Shown: piece after piece, positions 18,204-22,467 of the stretch
How positions within the stretch are numbered: the stretch's first letter is position 1
Layout of the letters: every line of letters begins with the position of its first letter
Assembly: GCA_963663405.2 (NCBI GenBank)
Contig: CAXXSM010000021.1
Span: 1-64,000 of the forward strand
DNA from: a bacterium
GTDB taxonomy: Bacteria; Hinthialibacterota; Hinthialibacteria; Hinthialibacterales; Hinthialibacteraceae
DNA: 64,000 nucleotides
Direction: 5' to 3'
Notes under the pieces: model-generated
What the model saw: the letters and a program-made list of their open reading frames with translations, nothing else
What the model was told of the DNA's origin: nothing
The model's database searches: none
Made by a program: the position numbers and the translations under genes

Positions 18204-19226
18204 CTATAAAATGGCGAGGTTCTTCCGGACCCATTCCACCAACTGCTTGATTCCTTCTTCCACTCCTGTTTTTGGAGTCCAATCCAGGTGAGATTGGGCT
18301 TTCGCGCAGTTCATCACACAGACTTTTTGATCGCCAGGCCGCCAGCCGTCTTTTGAAATTGCAAGGGTTTCACCGAGTTCTTTTTCCAGCATAGGGCCGA
18401 ATTCATTCCATATACTCACGCTGTGTTCTGCGCCGCCTCCAATATTGTAGACTTCTCCCGCCGCGCGATCGATCCGGTCTACGGCCCGTTTATAAACATC
18501 GACCAAGTCGTTCACCCATAATAAATCCCGAACCTGTTTCCCATCGCCGAAAATCGTGATAGGAGTTTTTTTTAAAGCGGCGATGGTGAACCATGCGGCC
18601 CATCCTTGATCTTCGATTCCAAACTGCCGGGGACCATAGATGGCGGATTGGCGGAAGACGACGGTTTTCAATCCATAAATCCGCGCATAATCCCGCACGT
18701 ATTGATCCGCGCAGCCTTTGGAACAGCCATAGGGAGAGTGAAAGTCGAGTGGGAAACTTTCGTCGATTCCGTCTTTGAGTGATTCGTACTCGTACCGAGT
18801 TTTCTTTTCAATAATCCCATTCTGTTCCATACCACCGTAGACTTTGTTGGTGGAAGCGAAGAGCAGAATCGGTTCGTTGTCACACTGCCGCAGCGCTTCC
18901 AACACATTGAACGTGCCCAATGCGTTGATCGTAAAATCGGATTGTGGATCGGTGACGGACGTGGTTACCGCCACCTGCGCGGCCAAGTGAACGACAACGT
19001 CAAAAGGGCCATAGGCCGCCAAGACGTTCTGCAGATCGATCCGGTGCCGAACGTCGAGATGCGTATATTGCAATTGTGGATGTTTGTTTCGCAGCCAATG
19101 AAGGTTGTGGATCGATCCACGGCGCGAAAAGTTATCCGCGATTACAACCGTTTCCCCTTCTGATAACAATCGGTCAGCCAGGTTGCTACCGATAAACCCG
19201 GCGCCTCCAAGAATCAAATAGTTCAT
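18204..19226 (-). CDS. NAD-dependent epimerase, CDP-paratose 2-epimerase-like
   Basis: GGAGFIG, HLAAQVAVTTS, STNKVYG, SPYGCSKG, EDQGW, RPGDQ. Confidence 0.9.
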   Translation of the reverse strand: MNYLILGGAGFIGSNLADRLLSEGETVVIADNFSRRGSIHNLHWLRNKHPQLQYTHLDVRHRIDLQNVLAAYGPFDVVVHLAAQVAVTTSVTDPQSDFTINALGTFNVLEALRQCDNEPILLFASTNKVYGGMEQNGIIEKKTRYEYESLKDGIDESFPLDFHSPYGCSKGCADQYVRDYARIYGLKTVVFRQSAIYGPRQFGIEDQGWAAWFTIAALKKTPITIFGDGKQVRDLLWVNDLVDVYKRAVDRIDRAAGEVYNIGGGAEHSVSIWNEFGPMLEKELGETLAISKDGWRPGDQKVCVMNCAKAQSHLDWTPKTGVEEGIKQLVEWVRKNLAIL

Positions 19227-19543
19227 AACGTAATACTCAATTTCTGCTTGTGGGATAAAATAGCATTATTATAAAGAATGCGGTTTGATTCAAGATTTGC
19301 GTTTCAGCGTACACGCGTCTTGACATTTTTCTCATAGCATTCATACTACTTATTCTATGATTAAGAGTAAGTCCTAAAGCCAAATATATTTGAATTTAGG
19401 ATGGTTGCAAATTCTTTCAAGGCATTGAAGTGATAGATTTATAGAAGGGCCTTGAACGAATCCAAAAACGCTGTTCCATAACGAATTCTTGTCTGGTTGG
19501 GATTGGCGTAAAGTTCGTAATACCGAAAATAGATCCAATTCAT

Positions 19544-19626
19544 CCAGGGGTGCCCGAGTGGCCAAAGGGAGCAGGCTGTAAACCTGCCGGCGTCAGCCTT
19601 CGAAGGTTCGAATCCTTCCCCCTGGA
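19544..19626 (+). tRNA. tRNA-Tyr(GTA) with C1:G72, A73 and long variable arm; CCA not encoded
   Basis: Acceptor CCAGGGG/CCCCTGG; anticodon arm GCAGG-CTGTAAA-CCTGC; 14-nt variable region with GGC/GCC stem; T arm GAAGG-TTCGAAT-CCTTC. Confidence 0.96.
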
Positions 19627-19715
19627 TTTTTTTATGGAGCGCGGGCGTCTTGCCCGTAATACCGGATTTAATTATCAATCCATATCGATAAAGGATTGCA
19701 CGGTAATAAATCCTT

Positions 19716-19755
19716 TCCTGAATATCCTTTCATCTTGAAGATCCGGATTCTGACA
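19716..19755. repeat. Solo arm related to the GxxExxY-flanking repeats
   Basis: TCCTGAATATCCTTTCATCTTGAAGATCCGGATTCTGACA, similar to 17118-17157. Confidence 0.6.
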
Positions 19756-19836
19756 TAAAAATCTCCATAAATAGCAATAATTGAATCAACGCAACAGCAA
19801 GACAATAATCAAAAATACAAAAAGAATCCTTCCCAA

Positions 19837-20979
19837 ATGAATGTCGACGAACGATTCAATCTAATCACACGAAACGCGCAGGAATTATTGACCGAACAAC
19901 GGCTGCGTGACTATTTAGAGAACGATGTTCCCCTCCGCCATTACATCGGTTTTGAGATCTCTGGAGAGATTCATCTCGGCACGGGTATCCAATGTATGGC
20001 GAAGGTCGCCGATTTCCAAAAAGCGGGCGTGGAATGCATCCTTTTTCTTGCGGATTGGCACAGCTGGATCAACGATAAACTCGGTGGCGATCTCGAACGC
20101 ATCCGCTCCTACGCCTATGGTTATTTCGCTGAAGGATTGAAAGCCTGCCTGAAAGCGGTCGGCGGTGATCCCGATGCGATCCAGGTTGTTTTAGGATCCG
20201 ATCTGTATCAGAAAAAACCGGATTATTGGACCTCATTCGTCGAAGTCTGTAAAAATACGACGCTGAAGCGTATCCTGCGCTCCATTACGATTCTCGGACG
20301 GGCCGAAGGAGACGCTGTCGATTTCGCGAAGTTGGTCTATCCACCCATGCAGGTCGCCGACATCTACGCTCTGGGCGTAAATCTGGCCCACGCGGGGAAC
20401 GACCAGCGCAAAGCTCACGTGATCGCCATCGATACCGCCAATCAATTGAAGACCAACGTAACTACCGGTCCGGACGGGAAGACCATCGTCCCATTGGCGA
20501 TTCATCATCATCTGCTCAGCGGCCTTGGGAAACCTCCAATGTGGCCCATCGATCCAGACCGAATTCAGGAAGTCTGGACGGCGATGAAAATGAGCAAATC
20601 GAAACCGAACACGGCCGTCTTCATCACGGACGAACCAAACGAAATTGCGAAGAAGATCAAAAAAGCGTTCTGTCCTGAAGGTGAAACCGGCTTCAATCCT
20701 GTATTAGACTGGGCGAACCGTTTGATCTTTTGTCTCGATCGCGGGCCGTTGGAAATTGAACGCAAACCGGAACATGGCGGTAATTTGTCTTTCAAAACGT
20801 ACGAAGAATTAGAACAGTCATTTGCGGAAAAAGCGCTGCATCCGATGGATTTGAAAGCCGCCGTGGCCCAAAGTATCACGGACCTTCTCGCTCCCATCCG
20901 GGAACATTTTACAGATCCGGAAAGACGCAAAATCCTCGATTCGCTCCGGAAAGATATGAAAACAATCAAACTGCGCTAA
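19837..20979 (+). CDS. tyrS: Tyrosine--tRNA ligase, archaeal type
   Basis: YIGFEISGEIHLG, FLADWHSWINDKLGGD, YPPMQVADI, GNDQRKAH, KMSKSKP, IKKAFCP, LHPMDLK; 380 aa with no S4 domain. Confidence 0.93.
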   Translation: MNVDERFNLITRNAQELLTEQRLRDYLENDVPLRHYIGFEISGEIHLGTGIQCMAKVADFQKAGVECILFLADWHSWINDKLGGDLERIRSYAYGYFAEGLKACLKAVGGDPDAIQVVLGSDLYQKKPDYWTSFVEVCKNTTLKRILRSITILGRAEGDAVDFAKLVYPPMQVADIYALGVNLAHAGNDQRKAHVIAIDTANQLKTNVTTGPDGKTIVPLAIHHHLLSGLGKPPMWPIDPDRIQEVWTAMKMSKSKPNTAVFITDEPNEIAKKIKKAFCPEGETGFNPVLDWANRLIFCLDRGPLEIERKPEHGGNLSFKTYEELEQSFAEKALHPMDLKAAVAQSITDLLAPIREHFTDPERRKILDSLRKDMKTIKLR

Positions 20980-21018: not shown

Positions 21019-21651
21019 ATGATAGCGATTGTTGATTATGAAGCGGGGAATTTGAAGAGTGTGCAACGCGCCGTTCGTCATTTGGGATACGACGCTTTGA
21101 TTACCAGCGATCCCAGCGAGATTGATCGCGCCGAACGGATCATTTTTCCCGGCGTAGGCGCTGCGGGCGCGTCGATGGAATCGCTTCGTAAAAGCGGCTT
21201 GGACCAGGTTGTTAAAAACCAGGTGATCGACAAGAAAAAACCATTTCTCGCGATCTGTATCGGCATCCAGATTATTTTCGAACGAAGCGAGGAAGATGAC
21301 GCGGTCTGTCTCGGTTTATTGAAGGGCCAAGTGAAACGCTTTCCCGCTCAAACGCCTGACGGTGTGTTGAAAATCCCTCAGATCGGTTGGAATCAACTGT
21401 ATCAAACGATCCCCCATCCCATCTTTGAAGAAACGAAAGATGGAAGCGAAATGTATTTCGTTAATTCCTACTATTGCGATCCGGCTGATCGCTCCGTTGT
21501 TATTGGGGAGACGGAATACGGCATACGTTTCACCAGCGCGGTTGCGAAAGAGAACCTGATCGCGACGCAGTTTCACCTTGAAAAAAGTGGGAAAATCGGT
21601 CTGCGGATGCTGAAAAACTTTTGCGAGTGGACGCCATCGGGTACGGTATAA
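21019..21651 (+). CDS. hisH: Imidazole glycerol phosphate synthase, glutaminase subunit
   Basis: VDYEAGNLKSV, PGVG, ICIGIQ, IPQIGWN, TQFHLEKS. Confidence 0.95.
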   Translation: MIAIVDYEAGNLKSVQRAVRHLGYDALITSDPSEIDRAERIIFPGVGAAGASMESLRKSGLDQVVKNQVIDKKKPFLAICIGIQIIFERSEEDDAVCLGLLKGQVKRFPAQTPDGVLKIPQIGWNQLYQTIPHPIFEETKDGSEMYFVNSYYCDPADRSVVIGETEYGIRFTSAVAKENLIATQFHLEKSGKIGLRMLKNFCEWTPSGTV

Positions 21652-21684: not shown

Positions 21685-22467
21685 ATGCTGACCAAACGTA
21701 TCATTCCATGCCTGGATGTCCGCGCGGGACTCGTCACCAAAGGCGTTGAATTTAAAAACAACATCGATCTCGGCGATCCCGTGGCGATGGCGAAAAAATA
21801 CTACGATGAAGGCGCCGACGAGATCGTCTTTTACGATATTACCGCCAGCAGTGATGAACGCGATATTATGATCGACGTCGTCAGCCGCACGGCGAAAGAA
21901 ATCTTTATCCCTTATTCCGTCGGCGGGGGCATTCGTGTCTTAGAAGATATGCGCCGTGTTTTATTAGCCGGCGGCGAGAAAGTCAGCGTCAATTCCGCCG
22001 CTGTTCTTAATCCCGATATTATCTCCGAAGGGTCGAAGGCGTTCGGCGCGCAGTGTATTGTCTTGAGCATGGACGTTAAAAAAGTGCCCGAAACGAAAGA
22101 TATTCCATCTGGCTACGAGATCTACATCAACGGTGGCCGCAAACCAATGGGAATCGACGCTCTCGAATGGGCGGAACGCGGCGTCGAGTTAGGGGCGGGG
22201 GAACTGGTCGTCAACAGCATCGACGCCGATGGAACCAAGGACGGCTTTGAACTCAACCTGACACGCCGCATCGTCGAAGCGGTCGGCGTTCCCGTCATCG
22301 CCAGCGGTGGGGGAGGGACGCCGGATCACCTATACGACGTTTTTACAAAAGGCAAAGCGGATGCGGCCATTATCGCGTCAATGATCCACTTCGGCACATA
22401 TACAATTCCTGAAATTAAGCAATATCTACATGAACGCGGTGTGCGCATGAGAATGACAATCGCGTAG
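21685..22467 (+). CDS. hisF: Imidazole glycerol phosphate synthase, cyclase subunit
   Basis: [42 protein letters not shown]. Confidence 0.97.

Follow-up and report, generated by a model that had tools for sequence, protein, structure and literature searches.

Archaeal-type tyrosyl-tRNA synthetase beside a long-armed C1:G72 tRNA-Tyr in Hinthialibacterota: a probable switch of tyrosine identity within one bacterial family

Can a bacterium give up the tyrosine identity of its own domain? The identity rules of tyrosine tRNA (tRNA-Tyr) are a textbook barrier between Bacteria on one side and Archaea and Eukarya on the other, and the question is raised here by a locus in a 64,000-nucleotide stretch of DNA, called the window below (positions 1 to 64,000, forward strand, of contig CAXXSM010000021.1, assembly GCA_963663405.2), from a bacterium of the phylum Hinthialibacterota. 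At this locus a tRNA-Tyr gene with a bacterial body and an archaeal first base pair precedes a gene for a tyrosyl-tRNA synthetase (TyrRS) of the archaeal type. Taken together, the evidence makes it very probable that the two form the sole tyrosine system of the organism, and that an archaeal-type TyrRS replaced the bacterial enzyme and a bacterial tRNA changed to match it. The finding is confirmed as real but not unprecedented, and its evolutionary reading is supported.

The tRNA-Tyr gene (anticodon GUA) lies at 19544..19626 on the forward strand and was recognized by Rfam RF00005, by ARAGORN and by alignment. RF00005 matched it over its full length (model positions 1-71) with 54.5 bits against a gathering score of 29, and the Rfam alignment gives the acceptor stem CCAGGGG/CCCCTGG, with pairs C1:G72, C2:G71 and A3:U70 and discriminator A73. 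The D-stem has 3 bp. The variable region, CGGCGTCAGCCTTC, counts 14 nt, holds a 3-bp stem and appears as a long insertion in the RF00005 alignment. The C1:G72 pair, A73 and 14-nt variable arm described in a first-pass annotation of this DNA were all borne out by the alignment and the fold. ARAGORN placed the gene at 19543-19627, one base wider at each end, with an extra T at position -1 that could pair with A73; the Rfam register was adopted because the T-arm fits it and because several other tRNAs of the genome are widened by ARAGORN in the same way. CCA is not encoded and a T-run comes next; in a rough check, many tRNAs of the window genome likewise lacked an encoded CCA.

Measured against the two classes of tRNA-Tyr, the gene is a hybrid. 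The bacterial class-II traits of a long variable arm, a 3-bp D-stem, the GUA anticodon and A73 are present, and positions 4-79 are 80-91% (up to 90.8%) identical to E. coli tRNA-Tyr across 5426 of 5426 genomes; judged by its sequence, the body is bacterial beyond doubt. In place of the bacterial G1:C72, however, stands C1:G72, followed by C2:G71. Of the archaeal traits, C1:G72 with A73 is found and the short variable loop of class I is not.

The TyrRS open reading frame (ORF) begins 210 nt past A73, at 19837..20979 on the forward strand, and encodes a 380-aa class Ic enzyme assigned to the archaeal/eukaryotic type from the ORF, PF00579, NF006330 and trees. It carries the motifs LADWHSWINDK (residues 72-82), DQRKAH (189-194), KMSKS (250-254) and KKAFCP (274-279), and HLGT at residues 46-49 aligns with HLGH of 1j1u as a HIGH-type motif. 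PF00579 (residues 31-351) is its single Pfam domain. The archaeal-type profile NF006330 (PRK08560) scored 410.1 bits against a cut-off of 220, and the bacterial profile TIGR00234 scored 104.5, below its cut-off of 113.8. Residues 1-369 align end to end with residues 1-370 of the 375-aa chain 2cyc_A (E 2.3e-126), a collinearity that leaves no space for an S4-like domain, and neither Pfam nor alignment with 2cyc_A and with DPANN/Asgard relatives revealed such a C-terminal domain. The earlier description of a 380-aa TyrRS about 210 nt downstream, with the quoted motifs and no S4 domain, was confirmed throughout by ORF, Pfam and alignment.

Is this enzyme the only TyrRS of its host? The window is contig C21 of a metagenome-type assembly of 8.44 Mb in 170 contigs (47% GC; 82% complete, 2.4% contamination). 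A six-frame scan of this genome found two PF00579 genes, the present TyrRS and a 329-aa ORF on contig C141 that reads as a bacterial TrpRS, and ARAGORN listed one tRNA-Tyr among 42 tRNAs; the check for a second tRNA-Tyr or a bacterial tyrS, which the first-pass annotation had proposed, thus returned neither in this 82%-complete genome.

The comparison was widened to 35 species genomes of the phylum, divided into the family of the window (f1; 20 genomes, window included) and families f2-f6 (15 genomes), with enzymes typed by the profile cut-offs for NF006330 (archaeal type, 220 bits) and TIGR00234 (bacterial tyrS, 113.8 bits). All 20 f1 genomes exceeded the NF006330 cut-off and none (0/20) the TIGR00234 cut-off; among f2-f6, 0/15 passed NF006330 and 14/15 passed TIGR00234, the one genome left over, G029, being 68% complete. 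Both enzyme types were never found together (0/35), and several f1 genomes are 95-99% complete. In a control set of 14 genomes, NF006330 at E up to 1e-60 was positive only in the 4 archaeal ones. A candidate relic of bacterial tyrS in the f1 genome G006 was rejected: the match to the C-terminal part of TIGR00234 (positions 300-402, 37.7 bits) is a stand-alone S4-like ORF of 58 aa (L119:410-586, reverse strand; G006:C281) and not a pseudogene. Its contig, L119, has 41% GC and many small ORFs and is possibly phage-like.

The tRNA genes of the phylum follow the same division. Searches used a covariance model built from 12 aligned tRNAs, which located a tRNA-Tyr in the majority of the genomes but gave no strong tRNA-Tyr match in G009 and G018 (both f1) or in G027. 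C1:G72 is present in 18/18 f1 genes read, with the acceptor strand CCAGGGG (once CCAGGGA) and its complement, and all 18 also have A73 and the long variable arm; the G1:C72 pair that the first-pass annotation had named as counter-evidence was absent from this set. The 14 genes read from f2-f6 all have G1:C72. The stem GGAGGGG/CCCCTCC of f3 and f4 equals that of f1 save for pairs 1:72 and 2:71, which are reversed.

Over the helices of 12 f1 loci, 5 pairs are altered on both sides, 100% of cells are paired and 0/500 shuffles reached as high a value; the compensatory pairs fall in the anticodon, variable and T stems. Such covariation indicates that the tRNA gene is functional and evolving. Within f1 the body of the tRNA falls to 73-92% identity and the acceptor stem stays constant, and a fixed acceptor with a diverging body is, in sequence terms, what marks a functioning tRNA with a strongly constrained acceptor end.

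Published work on recognition suggests why the enzyme and the first base pair should change together. According to the quoted passages of Tsunoda 2007 (PMC1934993), archaeal and eukaryotic TyrRSs and bacterial tRNA-Tyr do not cross-react, most probably through the difference between C1-G72 and G1-C72, and bacterial TyrRS binds the long variable arm with an additional domain at its C-terminus. In the M. jannaschii enzyme, the same passages state, Arg174 reads C1, Lys175 reads G72, Arg132 contacts C1 via water and G34 is stacked upon by His283. In chain 1j1u, positions 132, 174, 175 and 283 are indeed R, R, K and H, and alignment via P0244 places these four on Arg148, Arg191, Lys192 and His335 of the window enzyme (in the order Arg132, Arg174, Lys175, His283); all four are kept in each of the 16 long-form rows aligned. 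An allo-tRNA chassis bearing a variable arm, once given C1:G72 and A73, yields substrates of archaeal TyrRS in E. coli, as excerpted from PMC7590224. With identical recognition residues, the window enzyme is therefore expected to demand C1:G72 and A73 and to ignore the arm.

Trees place the enzyme among archaeal homologues. A FastTree of 154 rows agrees with two IQ-TREE runs, one quick and one careful (LG+C20 PMSF), on 54 rows picked from the 154 to span the groups; organism labels were taken from record titles, and we left out L008 (truncated), L088 (whose longest ORF is not TyrRS) and the archaeal loci L066, L068 and L073 (a stop in frame of the TyrRS match). All f1 enzymes fall into a single clade (99/99). 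It is nested in a group of 18 rows (99/97), which in turn belongs to a DPANN/Asgard set of 45 rows (98/93); bacterial TyrRS from the same phylum served as outgroup, on a branch of 2.17 units in FastTree. The archaeal ascription of the first-pass annotation was upheld by this position, among DPANN/Asgard sequences and away from bacterial TyrRS. The 18-row group, internally a polytomy, also includes two Planctomycetota lineages (L016/L018/P0032 and L061), P0121, and L026 with P0041, of which L026 comes from a 0.8-Mb genome in a record titled 'archaeon'. On this phylogeny f1 has an enzyme of archaeal type that was, as we read the tree, acquired once. The donor can be named no closer than DPANN/Asgard-like, and the transfer may have been direct from an archaeon or by way of another bacterium. 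As a side observation, P0053, labelled Caldisericia by one source, sits tightly with Woesearchaeota sequences (100/99 with L031), and may represent another acquisition by bacteria or else an archaeal contig placed in the wrong bin.

The Planctomycetota in this group were followed up at the level of genomes. In some Planctomycetota genomes of 4.8-5.6 Mb, among them G035 and G036 (the sources of L016 and L018), the archaeal-type TyrRS is the sole TyrRS, a state found in 2/4 genomes of G035's order. Planctomycetota tRNA-Tyr genes (L129:1494-1569; L061:1796-1871) have C1:G72, C2:G71, A73, an encoded CCA and a short class-I variable loop. In L061 the tRNA-Tyr lies directly upstream of TyrRS, which is not so in G036. 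No bacterial tyrS was found in G037, the source of L061; this genome is flagged unpublished, and the tree place of L061, its short-arm tRNA and the absence of tyrS all rest on it. Judging from the short-loop tRNA, Planctomycetota took a different route from that of the window. Derivation of their tRNA-Tyr from tRNA-Phe was considered and rejected, since the likeness is that of a common class-I D-arm and nothing specific.

The adjacency of the two genes in the window is a family trait. A tRNA-Tyr gene stands directly upstream of TyrRS at 11/11 close public loci and in 18/20 f1 genomes, and in the remaining two (G009 and G018) the TyrRS gene is at a contig end. The spacer of the window (19627..19836, forward strand, from the coordinates) measures 210 nt, with a T-run at its start, and is the longest; those of the 11 closest public loci measure 21-87 nt. 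Because these spacers are short, the tRNA and TyrRS are probably co-transcribed. A candidate promoter, TTGACA-16 nt-CATACT (10/12 matches), lies at 19320..19347 on the forward strand, and a weak promoter-like site (9/12) at 19781-19809 in the spacer; the consensus scan that gave both found 8 sites, where shuffles lead one to expect 2.3. The spacer showed no terminator-like hairpin, and when 19400-19900 was scanned with Rfam (E up to 1), only the tRNA and one chance-level match came back, with no regulatory RNA.

The surrounding genes recur as well. The usual f1 context is an epimerase-like ORF on the reverse strand, tRNA-Tyr, TyrRS and hisH. In the window these flanks are a 340-aa NAD-dependent epimerase/dehydratase-like ORF (18204..19226, reverse strand, read from the sequence), hisH (21019..21651, forward strand, named from the sequence) and, next after it, hisF (21685-22467). 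Among the 16 other f1 loci, the epimerase-like ORF adjoins the tRNA in 10 (tblastn, 63-66% identity) and hisH adjoins TyrRS in 13. The tRNA-Tyr loci of f2-f6 have none of the f1 neighbours.

The history we propose for the locus would run as follows. An archaeal-type TyrRS with DPANN/Asgard-like nearest relatives would have been gained horizontally, in a single replacement at the base of f1, and the bacterial tyrS and the G1:C72 tRNA would have been lost afterwards. The acceptor pairs of the tRNA would have turned from G1:C72 and G2:C71 to C1:G72 and C2:G71, so that the tRNA has the archaeal identity set of C1:G72 and A73. In the resulting pair Arg148, Arg191 and Lys192 would read C1:G72 and His335 would read G34, and the long variable arm would be a retained bacterial scaffold instead of an identity element, because the enzyme is without a domain for it. 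A native origin of the tRNA is favoured because its acceptor string is common to f3 and f4. Where the first-pass annotation had spoken of a native bacterial tRNA that switched identity, the switch is strongly supported by the class-II arm, the E. coli-like body and the f3/f4 stem; 'native' finds no backing in the body, whose likeness to the other families is no higher than to E. coli.

Several points weigh against this account. The f1 body is 82-91% identical to those of other families of the phylum, about as it is to E. coli tRNA-Tyr, and body identity was discarded as a guide to native or foreign origin, since the E. coli and phylum figures overlap; the genomic context of f1 tRNA-Tyr is also unlike that of other families. 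One f1 genome, G006, holds a second tRNA-Tyr with G1:C72 on contig L111 (G006:C410, 1-1705), a 1.7-kb Gly-Tyr-Thr tRNA cluster. As a candidate for a surviving bacterial tRNA-Tyr in f1 this copy was set aside: its contig has 65.6% GC and the TyrRS contig of G006 about 50%, and because of that mismatch L111 is probably, though unproven, bin contamination. The 18-row polytomy, which includes other bacteria, does not single out a donor lineage. The match between enzyme type and 1:72 pair goes back to one evolutionary event and cannot be counted as 32 separate ones. The absence of tyrS from the 82%-complete window genome rests on its more complete relatives; given that incompleteness, their genomes are the stronger evidence. 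Aminoacylation specificity, co-transcription, the vertical descent of the tRNA and the succession of tRNA and enzyme changes are what we infer, and the sequences by themselves do not reveal which change came first. Finally, some residue roles beyond the quotations from Tsunoda 2007 are presumed.

Some of these points would fit a joint import of both genes, in which a matched tRNA with a variable arm and an archaeal-type TyrRS came together from a bacterium that had already switched, with subsequent loss of the native pair. We regard this as unlikely. It would account for the adjacency of tRNA and TyrRS at each f1 locus where the assembly permits, for a locus context that differs from that of the f2-f6 tRNA-Tyr genes, and for Planctomycetota among the enzyme's nearest neighbours, with L061 too carrying tRNA-Tyr directly upstream of TyrRS; a body that cannot separate native from foreign bacterial origin is equally compatible with it. 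However, A3:U70 and the G4-G7 acceptor string are identical in f3 and f4, the Planctomycetota tRNA-Tyr genes read are of class I with a short loop and are therefore not the source, and a donor carrying such a tRNA was not found. An outright artefact, either a mis-binned archaeal contig or an accessory TyrRS beside an unassembled housekeeping tyrS, is already contradicted and has next to no probability left. The state of the assembly (82% complete, 2.4% contamination, metagenome-type, 170 contigs) would allow it, but the gene sits among bacterial genes (the epimerase-like ORF, hisH and hisF), whose ordinary bacterial character shows that the contig is not a mis-binned archaeal piece, the public contig encoding the exact protein spans 140,518 bases, and the same arrangement occurs in 20 genomes, not one of which has a bacterial tyrS over the cut-off although several reach 95-99% completeness.

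A different doubt concerns the arm, which may still be read if the acquired enzyme evolved a new contact with it, for example via a basic C-terminal tail. All five f1 enzymes aligned (window, L005, L007, L012 and L013) have an insertion of 3 residues and end in a stretch rich in Lys and Arg, ..MKxVKLR, and this f1-specific tail makes up the last ~20 residues (20914-20976 in the window); in the alignment, the long-type relatives from Planctomycetota (3) and archaea (7) have ..ITR-like tails instead. Together with the retention of an arm showing compensatory changes in all 18 f1 tRNAs read, this gives the idea some substance. The tail is, however, a single lineage-specific change, and its reach to the arm is hypothetical; archaeal TyrRS without such a tail charges the chassis with C1:G72 and A73 (excerpts of PMC7590224), and many tRNA-Tyr genes from candidate phyla radiation (CPR) bacteria retain the arm (excerpts of PMC5370408). 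A newly evolved arm contact is thus, in our estimate, very unlikely. The broader alternative, that arm reading was invented a second time via the Lys/Arg-rich tail or else that the tRNA-TyrRS pair is a mobile 'identity module' between phyla, we judge quite unlikely; if the module variant were true, the pair would have moved between family f1 and some Planctomycetota. Replacement of the enzyme, matched by a change in a bacterial tRNA, is the reading we retain.

The closest precedents are in the CPR. Archaeal-type TyrRS with a C1-G72 tRNA-Tyr was described in Parcubacteria, Microgenomates, Dojkabacteria and Katanobacteria, as the first evidence, in the authors' words, that tyrosine identity of the archaeal kind occurs among bacteria (Mukai et al. 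2017, PMC5370408, cited here from excerpts). The same excerpts predict a DPANN derivation for the CPR TyrRS and take the variable arm, often kept, as a sign of bacterial tRNA origin. This precedent makes the first-pass wording, rare rather than unprecedented, the right one. Common to the CPR cases so excerpted and to f1 are the archaeal-type TyrRS, the C1:G72 tRNA-Tyr, the variable arm and the lack of a conflicting bacterial pair. In contrast to them, the system described here belongs to a non-CPR phylum with genomes of 4-8 Mb, is fixed in 20/20 of family f1, has sister families that retain the bacterial system, and joins linked tRNA and enzyme genes. CPR membership is a trait of the published cases, not of the mechanism.

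Beyond natural cases, E. coli has been engineered to live with an archaeal TyrRS/tRNA-Tyr substituted for the native pair (Iraha et al. 2010, PMC2887954, in the part quoted); that laboratory swap brought in an archaeal tRNA, whereas here the bacterial scaffold was kept and two base pairs were altered. Compared with the canonical bacterial system of TIGR00234 TyrRS and G1:C72 tRNA, which is present in f2-f6, the f1 system has the same tRNA body, long arm, A73 and GUA, a different enzyme family, and pairs 1:72 and 2:71 reversed. With 2cyc_A, which we take to be the Pyrococcus horikoshii enzyme, the window TyrRS shares ADWHSWINDKLGGD, DQRKAH and KMSKS, and neither has an S4-like domain; it departs from this archaeal long form in its bacterial genome, its 3-residue insertion and its basic tail. 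The M. jannaschii pair (1j1u_A) has the same identity logic of C1:G72 with A73 and the same recognition residues, although its TyrRS is a short form of 306 aa (E 9.4e-52 to the window enzyme) and its archaeal tRNA is of class I, that of the window being of class II. The M. jannaschii TyrRS/tRNA-Tyr is also the standard orthogonal pair for E. coli, which bears on the first-pass suggestion that the window pair might serve genetic-code expansion. Good orthogonality in E. coli seems unlikely, and more background charging than with archaeal class-I tRNAs would be expected, because this tRNA is like E. coli tRNA-Tyr in its variable arm, A73 and anticodon stem-loop. The value for code expansion is modest, since archaeal pairs already work well and this tRNA is closely E. 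coli-like.

No report of archaeal tyrosine identity for Hinthialibacterota or Planctomycetota was found in the open literature, supplements and subscription journals being outside its scope. A word search of a 2023 review of tRNA identity likewise gave no extension to either phylum, and the main text of the paper describing the phylum (PMC9324843) has 0 occurrences of tRNA, tyrosyl or aminoacyl. Relative to the literature found, the new elements are a non-CPR host with a large genome, fixation across a family with unswitched sisters, and a conserved linkage of tRNA and enzyme.

The interest of the case lies in this combination. The published natural breaches of the barrier that we found are all from CPR bacteria, whose genomes are tiny; in the present case an entire family of apparently free-living bacteria with large genomes has the breach fixed, and its sisters keep the ancestral state, which provides a natural before-and-after comparison. 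Reversing two base pairs at the upper end of the acceptor stem seems to be all that the tRNA needed, the variable arm has been retained through the whole history of the family, and the co-adapted genes became neighbours. Sequences from one phylum therefore make it testable how an identity barrier can be crossed alive, and whether an archaeal-type enzyme is indifferent to the arm.

Public records and metagenomes add minor observations. The proteins nearest to the window TyrRS (72-81% identity) come from records named Candidatus Omnitrophota, Candidatus Hinthialibacter or 'bacterium'; Hinthialibacterota (=OLB16) were previously assigned to Omnitrophota, according to the part of PMC9324843 quoted. 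Metagenome contigs from runs X1 and X2, which belong to one sample, show 0 differences from the window stretch and probably represent the source sample, not an independent one. A 151-nt contig of run X4, from another study, covers the tRNA with 3 differences and was not taken as independent support. The runs with matching contigs are of the DNA type, and a search of sequencing runs for the stretch listed no RNA run. In runs X1-X4, many high-depth contigs of other organisms match window positions 19546-19589, that is, the tRNA only from its position 3, and several of their loose ends stop in GG before that position, which fits ordinary G1,G2 tRNA-Tyr genes of co-occurring bacteria. The window genome also encodes a tRNA-Sec (anticodon TCA; G000:C22:30979-31074).

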